DNA of 17,722 nt, taken from IMG/VR virus record IMGVR_UViG_2695420708_000013, positions 1 through 17,722 of that record. The stretch is one strand, 5' to 3'. Below are positions 8,610 to 16,694 of the stretch, piece after piece. The notes below the pieces were generated by a model that saw only the letters and a program-made list of their open reading frames with translations, did not search any database and was not told the DNA's origin. Within the stretch, counting starts at the first letter, position 1; the number at the start of each line of letters is the position of its first letter. Position numbers and translations under genes: made by a program. This DNA comes from a virus (Duplodnaviria > Heunggongvirae > Uroviricota > Caudoviricetes).

Positions 8610-8855
8610 TTTCTAGGCTTCCACCACCAGCACGACAAGATGCCGCATACAGTGACCCAGTCAGTCCAGTTTTCAGACAACCAGTGCGTCACCTTTTTGA
8701 AGGCGCTTTAAAGCACGTTTTAATCCAGGTCGGCCTGTCCTTGTTCCGCTTAATTTATCTTCAAATATTTGTTCATATCCTGCACAAACAAGAGCGTTTC
8801 GTTGCAGGTCTGTATTCTGGTCATTTGTTGATACCCTTACATAGCCAATCAGCAC
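8610..8855 (-). pseudogene. Decayed second copy of the serine invertase (N-terminal ~60 codons intact, then stops)
   Basis: ORF 8673..8873 encodes LIGYVRVSTNDQNTDLQRNALVCAGYEQIFEDKLSGTRTGRPGLKRALKRLQKGDALVV then TGA; further downstream reads KLD*LGHCMRHLVVLVVEA*, recognisably related to KLDRLGRSMKHLISLVGEL of the intact copy. Confidence 0.7.
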
Positions 8856-8961
8856 GCTGAATCTCCCGTCCAAAAGCGCAAATCATGCCATGCAGGCCGG
8901 AAACGGCCATTATCTAAAACCTCGGTTTACAGGAAACGGTAAACAAGGCTGGTAACGCCGT
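8666..8961. repeat. Direct repeat copy B (~296 bp) of the invertase 5' end plus crossover site
   Basis: See copy A; same orientation. Confidence 0.85.
8910..8935. other. Invertase crossover site, copy R1 (boundary of the invertible fibre segment)
   Basis: Identical 26-mer to 7711..7736; the alternative fibre reading frame runs straight through it (..[12 protein letters not shown]..). Confidence 0.78.
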
Positions 8962-9823
8962 TCAGCGTTCCGGCGATAAAATGACCGGAGAACTGAAAAT
9001 TGGCACGGTGAATGCGCTGCGAATTTTCAATGATACCTTCGGTCTAATTTTCCGTCGTTCAGAAGATTTTCTTCATTTCATTCCGACGGCTGAAGGACAA
9101 GGCGAAAACGGTAATATCGGCCCATTAAGGCCATTCGCTATAAATCTGAGAACAGGTGCTATATCTGTCAGCCACGGGGCCAAAATTAAAGGAGGTCTAG
9201 CTATTGGAGCTACTGATAACGCACTGGGTGAAAACTCCATTGTTCTGGGAGATAACGACACCGGATTTAGGCAAGATGGAGATGGTATTATTAGCTTCTA
9301 TTCAAATGGTTCGCGCATCGGACATATTGATGAGTTAGGATTACATCTTTATAAAGATATTGAATCTAATGGCAGCAATTTTAGATTAAAAAGTAATTAC
9401 CGCCACCACATTACATTCGCCAACGAAGACGGAAGAATTCGTATGTTTTTGTGGAAAGATAACGGTGGTGATGGTGTTCATATTAATAACGGTTCAGATG
9501 GTGGTGGTGATTTCATTTTTAAAACAGATGGGGGATTTGCGCTGGGAAGTGGTGCGCAAGTTGCGTCTAGTGGCGATATTTATGGTTCAGTGTGGGAAAA
9601 CAACTGGTTAAGCACATGGCTGCATAATCATGTCGTTCGGGATATTCGTCTTGGCAGCATTGAATATAAAAACGTATGGCGCGACTACGGCTTTGGCGAT
9701 GCGTCAGGTTATGTTTTAACAGCCGCAATTAACAGCAATGCGGATGATATTGTCGACACTGTTGCCAGAAGGCCAATTCAGAAATTGATTGGGGGAATAT
9801 GGTACAACGTGGGGAGTGTTTAA
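8936..9823 (+). CDS. Alternative tail-fibre C-terminal cassette (Hv'), silent in this orientation
   Basis: Frame is open from the crossover site ([20 protein letters not shown], then the ORF-track start M at 8981); no SD of its own; ends ...[15 protein letters not shown] like P2 gpH; Gly-rich beta-rich body typical of fibre tips. Confidence 0.75.
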
Positions 9824-9824
9824 G

Positions 9825-10352
9825 ATGATGCACCTGAAAAATATTAAGGCCGGGAATCCGAAAACACCGGAACAATACCAGCTAACTAAAAAAGCGGGCG
9901 TGGTATGGCTCTTTTGCGAAGATGGCAAAAACTGGTATGAGGAACAAAAGAATTTTCAGCCAGACACCATAAAAATTGCTTACGATGAGAACAACATCAT
10001 CGTTGCTGTCAGTAAAGACGTTTCAACTATTAATCCTGAAGGGCTAAGCATAGTTGAAGTTCCTGATATTACGGCAAATCGTCACGCAGACAATAACGGA
10101 AAATGGATGTTTCTGGATGGTAAAGTAGTAAAGAGGGAATATACAGAACAGGAACTGCAACAACAGGCCGAATCACAAAAGGCCGCATTGCTTTCCGAAG
10201 CTGAATCAGTCATCCAGCCGCTGGAACGCGCTGTCAGGCTGAATATGGCAACAGACGAGGAACGCACACGACTGGAAGCATGGGAACGCTACAGTGTTCT
10301 GGTCAGCCGTGTGGATACGGCAAATCCTGAATGGCCACAAAAGCCTGAATAA
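9825..10352 (+). CDS. Alternative tail-fibre assembly chaperone (gpG/Tfa-like), partner of Hv'
   Basis: Starts [14 protein letters not shown] 1 nt after the Hv' stop, with GGGGAG SD; paralogous to the opposite-strand tfa ([14 protein letters not shown]...PEQPE). ORF-track start 9789 is an upstream extension. Confidence 0.85.
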
Positions 10353-10357
10353 AAATT

Positions 10358-10377
10358 AAGGCCCGATAGCGGGCCTT
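10358..10377. terminator. Bidirectional hairpin between the two convergent fibre-assembly genes
   Basis: GGCCCG-ATAG-CGGGCC stem-loop flanked by A/T runs on both sides. Confidence 0.5.
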
Positions 10378-10380
10378 CTC

Positions 10381-10914
10381 TCATTCTGGTTGTTCGGGAA
10401 ACGTTACTGGCAGGCTGGAGGTGTCTGTGGATTCGACCTTCTGCGCATAGAGCATCCACTCGGTTAATTTTTGTTTATTCTCATCGGAAATGATGCCCAG
10501 CTGTAGCTGAGAGTCCCACAGCTGGGTTTTATCCCTGACGAGCTGCAGCAGGCTCTGCTTTTCATTTTCCGCTTGTTGCCTTTGCTCTTCCTCGGTATAA
10601 GTTCGCTTTATCACCGCACCATCTTTGAACATCCAGTTGCCCGAAATATCAGCCCGGCGATTTGCTGTAATATCAGGCAACTCAACGACACTTAAACCTT
10701 CTGGATTAATTGCTGATACATCCTTGTCTATAGCAATAATTATTCCCTCAACTGTGTAAGCCAGTTTTATTGTATCCTCCTGAAAGTTTTTTAATTCCTC
10801 ATGCCAATTTTTTCCATCTTCGGACCATAACCAGATAACATCAAAATTCTTTGTTAGCTGGTATTGTTCAACGGTTTTTGGATTACCTGCGACAATGTTT
10901 TTTAAATGCTGCAT
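10381..10914 (-). CDS. G: Tail-fibre assembly chaperone (P2 gpG-like), partner of the currently expressed fibre tip
   Basis: 177-aa ORF; N-terminal 100 aa conserved with the + strand paralog, C-terminal half divergent, as expected for fibre-specific chaperones. Confidence 0.88.
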
Positions 10915-10916
10915 GA

Positions 10917-11066
10917 TTATACCTGCGATACGTTATACCATGTTCCGTTAATTAACTTTTGTATTGGTCTGAATACTGCCGGATCATCACCATCGACTTC
11001 ACCGATAATACCAAGCCCCGTGATTACATGGCCTGATTTTTCATACATCACGCCTTTCTTCATGGT
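10917..11066 (-). other. Orphaned last 50 codons of the expressed fibre gene, separated from it by an in-frame TAG
   Basis: Reverse-complement translation in H frame: [49 protein letters not shown], matching the conserved P2 gpH C-terminal end as I recall it; stop TAA 2 nt before the tfa ATG. Confidence 0.65.
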
Positions 11067-12857
11067 CTAAACAACTCGTGTGCCAAGTCTGACATCTCTC
11101 ACATAGCGGGAATCAAAGTTACCGTAATCCGAGGGATTAACACGTCCCGTAATATTTATGGTTTTATTACTTTGAATGCTTCCGGAGACAAAGCGCATAA
11201 CATGGACGTTATTAGCATAAACATCCAGATTACCATCGCCTTTTTGTTTAAAGCCCGTGTCATTATCACCCAATACAATCGAATTACCGCCAAGAGCACT
11301 GGATGTTCCGATACCCAGTGCACCATTCAGTTGACCACCAGATAACGGCAGTGCACCAACATCTCCTGCTGAAGGTTTTCTGGTGGTGTAAAATTCGGAC
11401 CAGTCGGCTTCAAAACCATAACCATCACGGGCTGAACGATAAAAAATACCGCCATTTTTATAATTAATCCGAAACTGAGCTGCAGGACAACTTCCTTCTC
11501 CCATATAAAAATGAATAATTAACGTTGATGCACCACTAATAGTTGCGTTATAGGCTCCGCTACTCCAGTTCCATCCAACTGCTTTATCATTCGCAACGGT
11601 GCTTCCTGTTTTCCCTAAGGCAAACGCACCAACATGACTTGCTTTTAATGTGATATCGGAGGAACCATCAAAAGCCACATTGCTTATTTTCCTGGCAGTT
11701 TTTAATTTTGCAGCTGTAGAAGCATTGCCGGATAGTTCACCAGAAAGGCCACCGCTGAATGTTTGTCGATTAGTCCAGGTATTCGCTGTACTGAGTAACG
11801 GTATTTTCTCCCCGCTTGTGCCGAGTTCTCGTAAACCGAGGTATTCGATAACGGCAGCAACGGTCGATTTCGCAAGAATATCCCGCCCGACTTTTGTCAG
11901 GGTTGCCAGGCTGGCGACATCATTCCCCGTAAAATACGGAAACTTGCCTGCCGCAGTAGTAAGTCCGGCCAGCGCCGTCAGGGTGGCATCTTTCGGTTGC
12001 TTACCCGCAAGCGCGTTAGTCATGGTGGTCGCAAAATTCGGGTCGTTGCCCAGCGCCGCCGCCAGCTCGTTCAGTGTGTTCAGTGCATCAGGCGAAGAGT
12101 CTACAAGTGCGGCAATCGCAGCCATAACGAAAGCCGTGCTTGCGATTTGGGTATTATTCGTTCCCTGTCGCGCAGTTGGTGTTGTTGGCGTTCCGGTCAG
12201 TGCAGGACTATTTAAGGGCGCTTTCTTGTTCGTTTCACCCATTACCGCCTTAACCGCTTTTGGCGTTGCCGCCAGTGACTCGGAAGTGCTGTTGGTCGCA
12301 CTGCTGAGCTGTACTATCCCCTTTTTCGTCGTGCTCGCATCCTCCAGCGCCACGGCGGATGCAATATCCTCTGCCCGTTTTGCTGCTGTCTCGGCGCGCG
12401 TTGCCGCGGATTCAGCAGCAACTTTGCTCTGAGATGCAGCCGTCGCACTGCCTGCCGCCTCTGATGCTTTCGTTGTTGCTGTCGTGGCACTACCTTTCGC
12501 TGCTGACGCTTGTCTGGTCGCCTCATCTTTTGAAGCAGACGCAGATGATGCCGATGACGCCGCTGAACTGGCTGACGATGCGGCTGCTGCCTTAGAGGAA
12601 GCAGCATTGTCTGCTGAAGTCTTTGCATTTGTTTCAGAGGTTTTTGCTGCAGAAGCAGACCTCGCTGCTGCAGTGGCTTGCTCAGTGGCTTTGCCAGCCT
12701 TCGTTGTGGCTGTTGAAGCGGATGATGCGGCGCTTTCTGCCGATTTTCCGGCGGCGGTGGCACTGGCTGAGGCCTGCCCGGCACTTGTTGACGCGGCACT
12801 GGCAGATAATGCAGCCGCTGTTTTTGAACCTGCCGCAGAGTGGCATCTTTCGGTTGC
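11067..12857 (-). CDS. H: Tail fibre gpH-like, Ala/Ser/Thr-rich middle region plus variable C-terminal part (frame B)
   Basis: My own translation shows this frame open from 12857 to the TAG at 11067, reading Ala-rich repeats (..AAKTSETNAKTSADNAASSKAAAASS..) into KAPLNSPALTGTPTTPTARQGT...IEYLGLRELGTSGEK... The ORF track only reports it from an internal GTG at 12353. Confidence 0.7.
   Translation of the reverse strand, partial: ATERCHSAAGSKTAAALSASAASTSAGQASASATAAGKSAESAASSASTATTKAGKATEQATAAARSASAAKTSETNAKTSADNAASSKAAAASSASSAASSASSASASKDEATRQASAAKGSATTATTKASEAAGSATAASQSKVAAESAATRAETAAKRAEDIASAVALEDASTTKKGIVQLSSATNSTSESLAATPKAVKAVMGETNKKAPLNSPALTGTPTTPTARQGTNNTQIASTAFVMAAIAALVDSSPDALNTLNELAAALGNDPNFATTMTNALAGKQPKDATLTALAGLTTAAGKFPYFTGNDVASLATLTKVGRDILAKSTVAAVIEYLGLRELGTSGEKIPLLSTANTWTNRQTFSGGLSGELSGNASTAAKLKTARKISNVAFDGSSDITLKASHVGAFALGKTGSTVANDKAVGWNWSSGAYNATISGASTLIIHFYMGEGSCPAAQFRINYKNGGIFYRSARDGYGFEADWSEFYTTRKPSAGDVGALPLSGGQLNGALGIGTSSALGGNSIVLGDNDTGFKQKGDGNLDVYANNVHVMRFVSGSIQSNKTINITGRVNPSDYGNFDSRYVRDVRLGTRVV
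11826..11851. other. Invertase crossover site L, inverted relative to 7711 and 8910, inside gene H
   Basis: TTCTCGTAAACC-GA-GGTATTCGATAA; core GA is the complement of TC; encodes IEYLGLRE at the constant/variable junction of H. Confidence 0.78.
11983..12345. repeat. Internal direct repeat in H, copy 2 (~0.36 kb)
   Basis: Aligns to 12840..13200 at offset 857; both copies encode KAPLNSPALTGTPTTPTARQGTNNTQIASTAFVMAAIAALVDSSPDALNTLNELAAALGNDPNFATTMTNALAGKQPKDATL. Confidence 0.8.
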
Positions 12858-13708
12858 TTACCCGCAAGCGCGTTAGTCATGGTGGTCGCAAAATTCGGGT
12901 CGTTGCCCAGCGCCGCAGCCAGCTCGTTCAGCGTGTTCAGTGCATCAGGTGACGAATCTACAAGGGCGGCAATCGCAGCCATAACGAAAGCCGTGCTTGC
13001 GATTTGGGTATTATTCGTTCCCTGTCGCGCAGTTGGTGTTGTTGGCGTTCCGGTCAGTGCCGGGCTGTTTAATGGGGCTTTCTTGTTCGTTTCATCCATT
13101 ACTGCCTTAACGGCTTTTGGTGTCGCTGCCAGCGTTTCAGACGTGCTGTTGGTGGCGTTGCTGAGCTGGACAAGGCCTTTTGCGGTCAGCGAGGCGTCCG
13201 GGTGACGTCGTGACTGTTCATGCTCTTTCAGTTTGTCATCCACGTAATTCACTGTGGCCATCACCATGGTGTTATCCACGGTAAGCGCCACAGTGGCAGT
13301 GCTGGATACGGTCAGAATGGTGCGAAATGTTTGTGCACGTCCGGATCCTTCGGCAACGGTTGGCTTGTAACTTTCGGCAGTATTGCCTACCGCGATCAAA
13401 TCGCCGTGCTCATCAAACACACCAATTTCCCGGATCCAGAATCCGCCCGTTTCAGGAGGAATAACCAGCTCCGCAATAATGTGGTTCTGATGTGTTGCGT
13501 CCAGGGTGACGCGATTAACGGTATGTCGCCACACCTCATGCACAAGACGGGTCTGCTTACTGTCTGGCGTGGGTAAAGTACCGCCGCCGTCACCCACGGC
13601 CATATGTGTCAGGCGGACAGGTTTCCCATCTGGCGCGGTTGCCTGCGCTAATTTTTTTGCACCCGTATCGGTGATAATGGTTTTAAATTTTCGTGTTGTG
13701 GTACTCAT
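12836..13708 (-). CDS. H: Tail fibre gpH-like, N-terminal conserved part (frame A)
   Basis: MSTTTRKFKTIITDTGAKKLAQA...ELVIPPETGGFW...HEQSRRHPDASLTAKG... resembles P2 gpH N-terminus. After ...KQPKDATL the same frame continues as Gln/Arg/Pro-rich text to 12314, which I interpret as out-of-frame. Confidence 0.8.
12840..13200. repeat. Internal direct repeat in H, copy 1
   Basis: See copy 2. Confidence 0.8.
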
Positions 13709-13710
13709 GC

Positions 13711-14241
13711 TTAATCGTCCGGATAAATGGTAATGACTTCACCGTCGTAAGTTGCTGCTGCCGCGAAAATATCTCCCTGAATCTCCTGAATGATATTCAG
13801 CCCTGTCATGTGGCGGCTGACCGGGCGGGCATCAGCAATCAACCGCTCCATTTCCAGATACATTTCCTCCGTCACGCCACTGTCCAGCGTGCCAACATCA
13901 ATCTTGAATGTTCCGGGTTCGCCGTTGAACTCCCACCACTCAGACACGCGAATGAGGTATCCCAGCGGCTCAATGGCCCGTCGCAGGGCGCTGATGGTTC
14001 CTTTGTGTCGGTGTATCAGCCATGCATCACGAATCACCTGTCGCTTTGTCTCTTCCGGCCAGTTGCGATCCCAGCGGTCAACGGAAAACGCCCAGGCGAG
14101 ATAAGGCAGCAGATGCACCGGGCAGGTGTCCGGCGACCACAGCGTGTTGAGGTCTGCCGGAATGTCTGTAATGCGTGTTCCGACGGCTTCGGCACAACGC
14201 ATGAAATTGCTGGCTGATGGTGGTAACAGTGAATTACTCAT
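13711..14241 (-). CDS. I: Baseplate protein gpI-like
   Basis: WSPDTCPVHLLPYLAWAFSVDRWD and EMERLIADARPVSRH motifs; start ATG 14239-14241 (MSNSLLPP) just upstream of the J stop; ORF-track start 14274 is an extension. Confidence 0.87.
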   Translation of the reverse strand: MSNSLLPPSASNFMRCAEAVGTRITDIPADLNTLWSPDTCPVHLLPYLAWAFSVDRWDRNWPEETKRQVIRDAWLIHRHKGTISALRRAIEPLGYLIRVSEWWEFNGEPGTFKIDVGTLDSGVTEEMYLEMERLIADARPVSRHMTGLNIIQEIQGDIFAAAATYDGEVITIYPDD

Positions 14242-15130
14242 TACGCCCACCTTCGCTGATGGTGAATGACTCACAGCGCGCCGCCTGTATGTCGCTGATG
14301 GCCATATTCTGTGTGGGTTCGATTATCTCCACGCGTTGCACACCGTGCACATGCAGTGCGGCAGCAATGGCGGACAACGCCACGTCCTGACCGATAAGCC
14401 CCTGCTCAGCCAGCCACTTCCTGAACGACGATTCAGCCGCAGCCAGAATAGGTTCGGATTCCGGACCGGGGTAAAAGTACAGTTTTGCATTCAGCCGCCA
14501 TGTCACGATTCTGGCACTCTGTACGGTCAGGCGGTCGGCCACCGGGCGGGTATCCTCTGCATTCAGAACGGCGCGAACGGTATTAAGCAACGCCTCCGTT
14601 GCTGTGCCGTCGCCCTCAGTGGACAGGATGGAAACCGTCACATTTGCCGGAGACGGACTGATGGCCCGCGCATCGCGCACCAGACCGCTGGCGCTGCGGG
14701 CAAAATACTCGTATGCGCCTGACGGGCCTGCAACACTCAGGCCGTCATACGCCCGCTGCGCCCGCAGTCTCAGCGAGGTGTCGTTCTCCATCACCACGTC
14801 GGTGGTATCCGTTGCCGGAGTGATAACCAGGCGCTTTGTGTTCATATTGCCCGCGAGGTTGTCCAGGTCTGTTCCGGCGCTGTGGCTCAACATGCAGGCG
14901 CGTGCGGCCTCATTGACCCGCTGGCGTAACAGCATTTCACGAAACGACATGGTTTGAGCGATAACGTTCAGGGGTTCCGATTCCAGTTCCAGTGCGGCGG
15001 AGACGACTTCACGCTGTTCGGCGGGATAAGCTGCAATCATCATGGCCTTTGTGTCAGCCAGAATTGCCTCAAAGTCAGGCTCCGCGATGATGGCGGGTTC
15101 CGGTAACTGGGAAAGGTCAACGGCAGGCAT
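14234..15130 (-). CDS. J: Baseplate protein gpJ-like
   Basis: 298 aa, MPAVDLSQLPEP... N-terminus and RPVADRLTVQSA / YFYPGPESEPI motifs as in P2 gpJ. Confidence 0.9.
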   Translation of the reverse strand: MPAVDLSQLPEPAIIAEPDFEAILADTKAMMIAAYPAEQREVVSAALELESEPLNVIAQTMSFREMLLRQRVNEAARACMLSHSAGTDLDNLAGNMNTKRLVITPATDTTDVVMENDTSLRLRAQRAYDGLSVAGPSGAYEYFARSASGLVRDARAISPSPANVTVSILSTEGDGTATEALLNTVRAVLNAEDTRPVADRLTVQSARIVTWRLNAKLYFYPGPESEPILAAAESSFRKWLAEQGLIGQDVALSAIAAALHVHGVQRVEIIEPTQNMAISDIQAARCESFTISEGGRNE

Positions 15131-15133
15131 GAT

Positions 15134-15484
15134 TTACTCCCTCAGCGTGATGGTTAATTCAACATTCTGCATGGTCTGCATGACAGTGCCCGACAGCGTC
15201 ACCCCGGCGTGGCCTCCTGCCTTCCAGACAACGTCGATGGCGTTCAGGGCAATGCGTGGTTCCCATCGTGTCAGTGCAATCACGGTAGCACTCATGCATT
15301 GCAGACGCGTGGTGTTATTCATGGGTTCGTCAATCAAATCAGGCACAAGGCTGCCATATTCCCGTCGCATAACCCGGCTTGCCAGCGGGGTGGTCAGGAT
15401 GTCCCTGACTGACTGTTTCAGGTGCGCCATATCGTTCAGGTTTCCCGTCCCGTCCGGGTTCATTCCTGTGTAGCGGGTTGTCAC
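15134..15484 (-). CDS. W: Baseplate wedge protein gpW-like
   Basis: 116 aa, MTTRYTGMN..., gp25/W-like; overlaps gene V stop. Confidence 0.87.
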   Translation of the reverse strand: MTTRYTGMNPDGTGNLNDMAHLKQSVRDILTTPLASRVMRREYGSLVPDLIDEPMNNTTRLQCMSATVIALTRWEPRIALNAIDVVWKAGGHAGVTLSGTVMQTMQNVELTITLRE

Positions 15485-16062
15485 TGCGGGCCTCCTGTCG
15501 AATCGCTGCCACCTTTAACGCCACCGTGCTTATGCGTATGCACTGTGATGCCGTTTGAGGTGAAATCGCCGCCGCTGTGCGTGATATTGCCGCTCATCGT
15601 TCCCCCTTTTGTGACGTCAAGCGTCGCTGTTCTCAGAAGGTCTGTGCATTCCACGACAGGCGTGTTCAGTGTCACGCTGATGGATGCCTGCAAAGTGGCC
15701 GTTTTCATGCCGCTTGCGCTCAGTGCGCCTGCGTCCGCGTCGTAGCGGAACACCGCGCCGTCCGGCGCGCTGACCACGATTTCTTTCAGGCTTTTGCCGG
15801 GTGCCGGAATGGCATCACTCCACAGGCTGCCGATTATCATGGCGGTTTCCGGGTTGCCGCCGATGCAGGCAATTGCCACCTGTTCGCCTGGTGATGGCGG
15901 AAACCACACGTTGAAGTCTCCCGCGCGCGTGGTGTTCCAGCGCAGCCAGCCTGTTTCCAGTTCGCCGCTGCGAACGCGCACGCACCAGGATTCCTCATCA
16001 ACTTCAGAGATGATCCCGGTGCGGATGATATTGCTCAGCAGTCGCATGAGTTCTGCGCTCAT
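15481..16062 (-). CDS. V: Baseplate spike/assembly protein gpV-like
   Basis: 193 aa; C-terminal GGTMSGNITHSGGDFTSNGITVHTHKHGG motif characteristic of P2 gpV. Confidence 0.87.
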   Translation of the reverse strand: MSAELMRLLSNIIRTGIISEVDEESWCVRVRSGELETGWLRWNTTRAGDFNVWFPPSPGEQVAIACIGGNPETAMIIGSLWSDAIPAPGKSLKEIVVSAPDGAVFRYDADAGALSASGMKTATLQASISVTLNTPVVECTDLLRTATLDVTKGGTMSGNITHSGGDFTSNGITVHTHKHGGVKGGSDSTGGPQ

Positions 16063-16694
16063 CGTACAGCCTCCGCAATCCGGCCCAGCACCGTGTTATA
16101 AATCAGGCGCTCATCTGCCTGGCTGATACCCAGCAGCTCACGTACCGGGTAATCGGTGAAAATGCCCGGCGCAACCTGATCGCGCTCACCGAACTGATGA
16201 ACGCGTGCAATACGTGCGGCCACGCCGCTGTAACCCACCGTCACACCGGAAGCATCTGCACGGGCTTTCAGGTAGCGGGCGGTGCGCAGTTTTACGAACA
16301 TGGAGACGCGCCTGGTGCTGTCCTGGTTGATGCGCCGGGTGCGTATTTCCAGAAAACGGTCGATGTCATCCCGGTAAAACGTGCGGATATTGTTTTTATC
16401 CTCATCCCACCCGGTGATGGTTCGCCCGTATTTCCCCGTGTCGTGATGCCAGTTTTTCAGCGTGCGTGCTTCGTTATTCCAGATAAAGCGAATGCGCTCC
16501 TGTATCCGGGTTACGCGGCGTCTGCGTGGTGTCCATGCGGTCCCGTCCGGCGCTTTCTGTGACCGGATACGCGCCTGCTGGGCGCGGCGTAAATCCTGTG
16601 CCAGCTTTCTGGCGATGTTATTAATGGCCTGCTGATTCAGGCTGTCGCGGATAGCCTCAAAGGTTTCATCCACGCGGGTGAATGCCTTATCCAT
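16059..16694 (-). CDS. S: Tail completion / virion morphogenesis protein, gpS-like with an internal insertion
   Basis: C-terminal ARIARVHQFGERD...RELLGIS motif of the gpS family; about 60 residues longer than P2 gpS as I recall it. Confidence 0.7.
   Translation of the reverse strand: MDKAFTRVDETFEAIRDSLNQQAINNIARKLAQDLRRAQQARIRSQKAPDGTAWTPRRRRVTRIQERIRFIWNNEARTLKNWHHDTGKYGRTITGWDEDKNNIRTFYRDDIDRFLEIRTRRINQDSTRRVSMFVKLRTARYLKARADASGVTVGYSGVAARIARVHQFGERDQVAPGIFTDYPVRELLGISQADERLIYNTVLGRIAEAVR

Follow-up and report, generated by a model that had tools for sequence, protein, structure and literature searches.

A probable Gin/gix-class invertible tail-fibre segment in a defective P88-like prophage

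The stretch of DNA analysed here, IMG/VR record IMGVR_UViG_2695420708_000013 (17,722 nt, hereafter the window), makes up the whole of contig CXAP01000091.1 in the short-read draft assembly GCA_001260795.1. Part of it is very probably, at about 90%, a G segment of the phage Mu type, that is, a tail-fibre host-range switch worked by a serine invertase of the Fis- and enhancer-dependent Gin/gix class, in a P88-like prophage (Xuanwuvirus, P2 family). Two opposed cassettes, each of a variable fibre tip and a chaperone, lie between two inverted crossover sites, B and C. The second of these is within the fibre gene H. An intact invertase gene is outside the B-C segment, next to a third site, A.

The kind of system is already known, its mechanism being that of the textbook Mu G segment, which is found also in the described phage P88. 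There is no new biology in it, and a Gin/gix host-range switch was recognisable from the raw sequence. In the present genome the switch is a relic without host-range consequence. The window is mildly instructive for prophage evolution, in that a P2-family prophage and a lambdoid remnant appear to have traded a 5-kb fibre module through microhomology junctions, an exchange that doubled the crossover site and the enhancer and killed the fibre gene.

Crossover sites, invertase and fibre cassettes

Sites B and C match at 22 of 26 positions, are inverted relative to each other and have the asymmetric core TC/GA in common (Table 1). An earlier note on this DNA, made from the letters alone, had described them as inverted 26-bp sites of 12+2+12 structure with matching cores, and it had placed both correctly. 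A degenerate pattern fitting B and C matches the window three times, the expectation from 200 shuffles being 0.00. The segment had been taken as bounded by two sites alone, and a third at 7711-7736, site A, was overlooked. Site A is in the same (direct) orientation as B, and C is inverted relative to both. The two gix sites of Mu (NC_000929) have the sequence TTATCCAAAACCTCGGTTTACAGGAA, and their centres fall on the annotated boundaries of the G segment. Sites A and B are identical to the two Mu sites at 25 of 26 positions and site C at 22 of 26, which bears out a relationship of the 26-mers to known serine-invertase sites. The description gix/cix-like given to them was therefore correct but understated, the system being a close relative of Mu Gin/gix that is already present in P88. 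The outer half of site C, TTATCGAATACC, is kept at the H-side site of the P88, T28R, NCTC86 and ST131-type loci.

The codon phase is the same at B (..ATC TAA AAC CTC GGT TTA..) and at C (..ATC GAA TAC CTC GGT TTA..), with the core inside the CTC codon. When the exchange of B and C at the core is constructed from the sequence, ..AAVIEYLGL of H is joined in frame to the silent tip. This fusion, which the earlier note had worked out from the common phase, is also present in natural intact proteins.

The invertase has Pfam matches to Resolvase (1.5e-50) and HTH_7 (1.8e-13), and its alignment to the crystal-structure sequence of Mu Gin (PDB 4M6F) gives E=3.7e-101. The N-terminal part has 133 of 140 residues in common with Mu Gin (95%), including Ser9 in ..YVRVSTNDQ... 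The DNA-binding domain aligns best to Hin (1HCR) and is nearer to Hin than to Gin. Residues Gln151, Arg154 and Leu155 of Hin are reported to contact Fis and the enhancer, and to be conserved in invertases and not in resolvases (PMC3798978). Their equivalents in the alignment to 1HCR are kept as the Q, R and L of ..EQIARLI... The DNA identity of the gene to the P88 invertase gene is 98%.

The Fis-dependent enhancer of Gin, Hin and Cin sits in the 5' part of the invertase gene. Over its first 191 nt the intact gene in the window has 188 positions the same as Mu gin, and the adjacent non-coding spacer from start codon to site has 42 of 54 (78%). These 191 nt are presumed to be the recombinational enhancer. 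The truncated invertase copy next to site B has 185 of 191 nt the same as Mu gin, with the homology ending beyond 8665. Its equivalent in NCTC86 and ST131-type genomes is annotated as 'recombinase family protein, missing C-terminus'. At the other end of the intact gene, between the convergent U and invertase genes, is a hairpin at 7045-7070 that has a 10-bp stem and T-runs on both strands and resembles a bidirectional terminator.

The two opposed tip and chaperone cassettes proposed earlier are borne out by their open reading frames, by Caudo_TAP matches in both chaperones and by the relatedness of these to Mu U and U'. The silent-tip chaperone is 82% identical to Mu U and 97% identical to tfa' of T28R, and the H-linked-tip chaperone is 85% identical to Mu U'. 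Fibre domains were detected in both tips. The silent tip is intact, as had been claimed, and has 97% identity across 298 aa with its silent counterpart in E. coli T28R. Tips of its type are found fused in frame to H in strain 4238 and to the side tail fibre protein Stf of an ST131-type locus. The amber codon noticed in the H-linked tip is a genuine nonsense change (CAG>TAG, 11067-11069), the NCTC86 homologue having Gln at this position and being elsewhere near-identical. Past the TAG the frame goes on for 50 codons to ..WYNVSQV and a stop.

The mechanism suggested by the family is that dimers of the invertase would bind the 26-bp gix sites and, together with the enhancer at the beginning of the invertase gene, occupied by Fis, would form an invertasome on supercoiled DNA. 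Both sites would then be cut at the central TC/GA, rotated by 180 degrees and religated. Inversion between B and C would flip 2.9 kb and join the alternative tip and its chaperone to the constant part of H, in frame within the CTC codon. Inversion between A and C, of 4.1 kb, should be as feasible and would carry the methyltransferase gene and the truncated invertase along, its predicted product being H joined to a 21-codon stub. Recombination between direct repeats is blocked in the Gin and Hin systems by the topological filter of the invertasome and by the asymmetric core. Deletion between A and B by the invertase is therefore unlikely.

Table 1. Features of the invertible region and its surroundings, in window coordinates.
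Feature	Position	Strand	Remarks
Intact serine DNA invertase, 195 aa	7069-7656	-	Gin-like catalytic domain and Hin-like helix-turn-helix (HTH) domain; outside the B-C segment
Presumed Fis-dependent recombinational enhancer, copy 1	7466-7656	-	First 191 nt of the invertase gene
gix site A	7711-7736	+	TTATCTAAAACC-TC-GGTTTACAGGAA; identical to site B; adjoins the intact invertase
Left junction, P88-like / lambdoid	7762-7763		2-3 nt microhomology, ..GCCGT/ATTCA..
Sigma-70-like promoter of the methyltransferase	7777-7805	+	TTGATT-17-TATAAT, 10/12 consensus match; putative, by consensus match alone
Class I S-adenosylmethionine (SAM)-dependent methyltransferase	7806-8474	+	Between gix A and gix B; Pfam Methyltransf_12/23/25/11
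3' fragment of tail-fibre-assembly gene (tfaD-like)	8480-8626	-	Matches the 3' terminal part of K-12 tfaD and the tfa coding sequences (CDSs) annotated as partial in NCTC86/ST131-type remnants
Truncated second invertase copy and second presumed enhancer copy	8665-8855	-	First ~63 codons; TGG>TGA at 8673-8675
gix site B	8910-8935	+	TTATCTAAAACC-TC-GGTTTACAGGAA; left site of the earlier note
Silent variable fibre tip (Sv'-type), 299 codons	8924-9823	+	Intact; without its own start codon at the 5' end; Pfam gp37_trimer
Chaperone of the silent tip (Mu U type)	9825-10352	+	Caudo_TAP 7.9e-37
GC-rich terminator-like hairpin between the convergent chaperone genes	10358-10377		8-bp stem, 6 GC pairs, then a T-run
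Chaperone of the H-linked tip (Mu U' type)	10381-10914	-	Caudo_TAP 4.8e-34
H-linked variable fibre tip, 306 codons	10918-11837	-	Amber at 11067-11069; runs upstream into the constant fibre part
gix site C	11826-11851	-	Reverse complement TTATCGAATACC-TC-GGTTTACGAGAA; within the fibre gene; right site of the earlier note
Constant distal fibre part	11838-12835	-	Ala/Ser-rich region and Phage_fiber_2 module; lambdoid Stf origin
Right junction, lambdoid / P88-like H	12832-12838		CAG/CTG microhomology, ..GCCGCAG/AGTGGC..; out of frame
P88-like N-terminal part of H (tail-collar, baseplate-binding)	12836-13708	-	Pfam Phage_tail_fib N-terminal (PF12571) 5.5e-55

Comparative evidence for inversion

Both junctions expected from inversion between B and C were constructed and searched in 5,426 complete E. 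coli genomes, a junction being counted as contiguous when at least 80% of the query was covered. The junction of the H constant part with the silent tip is contiguous in 243 genomes (best identity 98.8%) and that of the invertase side with the H-linked tip in 376 (best 99.0%). The exact predicted fusion peptide is present in an intact P88-like H in strain 4238 and in an intact lambdoid Stf in strain 4/1-1.

The ST131-type locus of strain 4/1-1 differs from the window in the manner expected of site-specific inversion. The flanks align forward and the site-proximal interior in reverse, and the overlaps of the two alignments are limited to 8906-8930 and 11831-11855. Each flank keeps its outer half-site, TTATCTAAAACC towards the invertase and TTATCGAATACC towards H, and the inner half-sites GGTTTACAGGAA and GGTTTACGAGAA are reciprocally exchanged at the core. 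Likewise, P88 and T28R, both of which have an intact invertase, differ by an inversion of 2.06 kb with its breakpoints at their gix sites. Together these comparisons are strong evidence that sites of these sequences recombine by exchange at the core dinucleotide. The switch in the window is probably still able to flip, and its invertase may also act in trans on other prophages or on fibre segments without an invertase elsewhere in the genome.

Derivatives of such segments occur in other strains. In E. coli 4238 (NZ_CP103533.1, 4055-6845) a P88-like prophage has H permanently fused to a tip of the QETVNK type, followed by a single chaperone. Its invertase is reduced to a C-terminal fragment, which makes the locus a deletion-frozen derivative of the switch. 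A lambdoid remnant between trpA and ompW, which is widespread (NCTC86, 4/1-1, IPCEC48 and AST205), has an invertible fibre segment with intact gix sites and an invertase stub of ~60 codons. Given that stub, any inversion in the remnant must rely on an invertase supplied in trans, for example from a P88-like prophage. The AST205 locus is another of these lambdoid remnants, not a P88-like prophage in the opposite orientation.

A lambdoid block and the third site

Sites A and B are each part of a direct repeat of 263 nt (7500-7762 and 8699-8961, 98% identity), in which the 5' end of the invertase gene and the gix site are followed by the opening 26 nt of the silent tip. The homology with P88 and T28R runs out at 7751-7762, and homology to the NCTC86 remnant and to the cryptic prophage DLP12 of strain K-12 begins at 7763. 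Beyond this point, the ybcY-tfaD region of DLP12 shares 98.5% identity with 7763-8626, and the lambdoid remnant at trpA-ompW (NCTC86, ST131-type) shares 99.1% with 7763-8930. On the far side of the cassettes, 11831-12838 is collinear with the lambdoid Stf constant region of NCTC86 and ST131-type genomes at 95.5-95.9% identity, and P88-like H resumes at about 12836. The simplest reading is that ~3.0 kb of P88-like DNA was swapped for ~5.1 kb of lambdoid DNA (7763-12835) by illegitimate joining at microhomologies. The incoming block would have consisted of the ybcY methyltransferase gene, the tfa fragment, the truncated invertase, a gix site, both cassettes, a second gix site and the distal Stf constant region.

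The methyltransferase between sites A and B matches phrog_2132 over its full length (1.9e-156). It is a ybcY allele in intact form, the copy in K-12 DLP12 being a pseudogene. NCBIfam yielded no specific match for the methyltransferase, for the tips or for the chaperones. Methyltransferase morons of the ybcY type recur beside fragments of tail-fibre-assembly genes in lambdoid prophages.

Recombination by Gin at a pseudo-site was considered as the source of the junction at 7762/7763 and rejected, the junction being 26 nt past the site and its partner not gix-like. Within the repeat, 7657-7762 and 8856-8961, from the invertase start codon through gix and the following 26 nt, are 100% identical to each other, and P88 and the ST131-type remnant each differ from them there. 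In the coding part next to this stretch the two copies agree at just 182 of 191 positions. The identical stretch may reflect gene conversion between the copies after insertion. The P88 layout could be restored by ordinary homologous recombination between the two 263-nt copies, with loss of the insert.

The whole region 6900-12400, and then each junction of the block, was also searched in the complete E. coli genomes. The left junction at 7762/7763 is contiguous in 0 of the 5,426 and so is the right junction at ~12835. The exact left junction has 0 matches in species-representative genomes as well, a set that holds one genome per species and is hence uninformative on this point.

An artefact of assembly could account for this uniqueness, a P88-like prophage having been misjoined to the trp-ompW lambdoid remnant so that the real genome has two ordinary two-site segments. 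The window is after all a whole contig of a draft assembly, the edges of the block coincide with the switches between P88-like and lambdoid similarity, and neither edge recurs in the genomes searched. Graph assemblers misjoin within shared repeats, however, and the two junctions link unrelated sequence that has merely 2-3 nt in common, so that there must be reads across them. The 263-nt repeat and a further one of 300 nt were moreover resolved inside the one contig. A chimera of this kind is very unlikely.

Multi-site invertase systems exist, such as Min of plasmid p15B, in which one Gin-family invertase acts on six sites, each shuffling alternative fibre 3' ends. The window has more than two crossover sites, as Min does, and might thus be read as a functional shufflon-like switch of several states, with three gix sites and two enhancers giving two tips, a tip-less state and a reorientation of the ybcY methyltransferase relative to late transcription. 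The sequence identity of A and B, their common inversion relative to C and a derivable product of A and C (H with the stub) fit such a switch. If it were real, the 4.1-kb flip between A and C would produce a tip-less H, place the methyltransferase in the orientation of the late operon and make it a phase-variable prophage moron. Unlike the sites of Min, however, the third site in the window adds no alternative tip and comes from a replacement resembling a partial duplication. The segment 7737-8909 consists of the methyltransferase and gene fragments, with only the 21-codon stub following site A. The arrangement is unique to the present contig and was made by an illegitimate junction that also destroys H. 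The methyltransferase has a promoter-like site of its own and is elsewhere a conserved lambdoid moron outside invertible segments. A functional multi-state switch is therefore extremely unlikely, and there is no reason to think that the three-site arrangement was selected, given that it is unique and born of the event that killed H.

Lesions of the prophage and relation to known systems

The N-terminal part of H is 95.5% identical to P88 from 13104 on. Three-frame translation follows its reading frame to ..KQPKDATL and then through the wrong frame until it stops at 12314. The Ala/Ser-rich Stf region and all that follows it are read in a different frame from the N-terminus. As the two parts of H are out of frame at the right junction (~12835), no orientation of the segment gives a functional H. 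The earlier note had proposed that switching would bypass the premature TAG of the H-linked tip; inversion between B and C would indeed avoid the amber, but with H broken at ~12835 it restores no fibre. Similarly, the H-linked cassette had been called expressed. It is joined to H, but H itself is broken, and the baseplate-binding N-terminus is cut off from the downstream part. With the frameshift in H and the amber in the H-linked tip, a functional fibre is encoded in neither orientation. This is decay of the present copy and not a difference of kind.

A sequencing indel was rejected as the source of the frameshift, as the offset is intrinsic to the meeting of the parental frames at the CTG/CAG microhomology. 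The Phage_fiber_2 module occurs as a direct repeat of 300 nt (11979-12278 and 12836-13135, 93% identity), of which one copy is lambdoid and the other P88-like, and the two flank the Ala/Ser-rich Stf region.

A third inactivating lesion, besides the H frameshift and the amber in the H-linked tip, is found in the late gene D (194-1300, - strand), which has an in-frame TAG at codon 125 (~926-928) where P88 has Trp (TGG>TAG) and is otherwise 98% identical. The prophage is defective. Reassignment of the stop codon, suggested by two in-frame TAGs, was rejected as unnecessary, since each is a single GC>AT transition from CAG or TGG in genes that are otherwise 98% conserved, and the prophage is of E. 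coli type.

Several points weigh against a working switch of the Gin/gix class in the window. Fis binding and enhancer function are predicted solely from homology to Mu gin. The contig passes through all three sites without a break and in a single orientation, and the evidence for recombination is comparative and not from the present strain. The three-site layout and both block junctions are unique among the 5,426 complete genomes and rest on one assembly. Given the frameshifted H, the amber D and one amber tip, selection for switching is presumably gone here.

The region might be a frozen relic, of Gin/gix ancestry but with inversion ceased and the orientation fixed, because the invertase is unexpressed or inactive or because the composite architecture interferes. 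The decay of the prophage in D, in the tip and in H is in keeping with this, as is the single orientation of the contig. Frozen derivatives are also known among its relatives, with truncated invertases in the NCTC86 and ST131-type remnants and a C-terminal fragment in 4238. The invertase of the window, however, is full length, is 98% identical in DNA to that of the inducible P88 and retains Ser9 and the Fis-contact residues. None of the three sites or the two enhancer-homologous regions is damaged, and a single orientation is what a short-read assembly of one colony would show even at normal low rates of flipping. It is therefore unlikely that inversion has ceased altogether.

The B-C segment is like the Mu G segment in that the invertase and the constant fibre part are outside and the two opposed cassettes of variable tip and chaperone inside, and in its length of 2.9 kb, compared with 3.06 kb in Mu. 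It differs in several respects. The host element is a P2-family (P88-like) prophage and not the transposable Mu, the DNA-binding domain of the invertase is Hin/Pin-like, and the tips are mosaics that are just partly related to Mu S and S'. The H-side site has four substitutions, and the window has in addition a third site and a truncated copy of the invertase.

Another close relative is P88 (Xuanwuvirus P88, Peduoviridae; KP063541), to which the window is 96.5% identical over 180-7751 and 95.5% identical over 13104-16388. P88 is a described inducible P2-like coliphage (PMC5285337, PMC6456863). The window has in common with P88 and T28R the order D, sheath, tube, E, E', T, U, convergent invertase, silent tip, tfa', tfa, H, I, J, W, V, as well as an identical invertase-side gix and the same outer half-site on the H side. 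In this layout the genes from sheath to U share a strand, and H has a site inside it. P88 and T28R have two sites and lack the methyltransferase and the truncated invertase, and their H, of 698-764 aa, is intact and in a single frame. The window differs from them in the 5.1-kb lambdoid replacement block and the three inactivating lesions.

The trpA-ompW remnants of NCTC86 and ST131-type strains resemble the window in the methyltransferase, the tfa fragment, the truncated invertase, the outer gix half and the distal Stf constant part. Their fibre N-terminus is that of lambdoid Stf, they have no intact invertase close by, and the ST131-type loci have the segment inverted relative to the window. 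The Cin-cix system of P1 (C segment), Pin-pix of e14 and Hin-hix of Salmonella have an enzyme of the same subfamily and the same site architecture. They are more distant in sequence than Mu Gin, the P1 cin gene having 72% DNA identity to the invertase gene of the window, and Hin switches a promoter rather than a fibre tip.

Outside the invertible region, gene E has AAATTTTTTGAG at 3517-3529, upstream of E', the frame that overlaps it (3502-3738). P2-type E/E+E' genes usually have this slippery site for the tail-chaperone frameshift.

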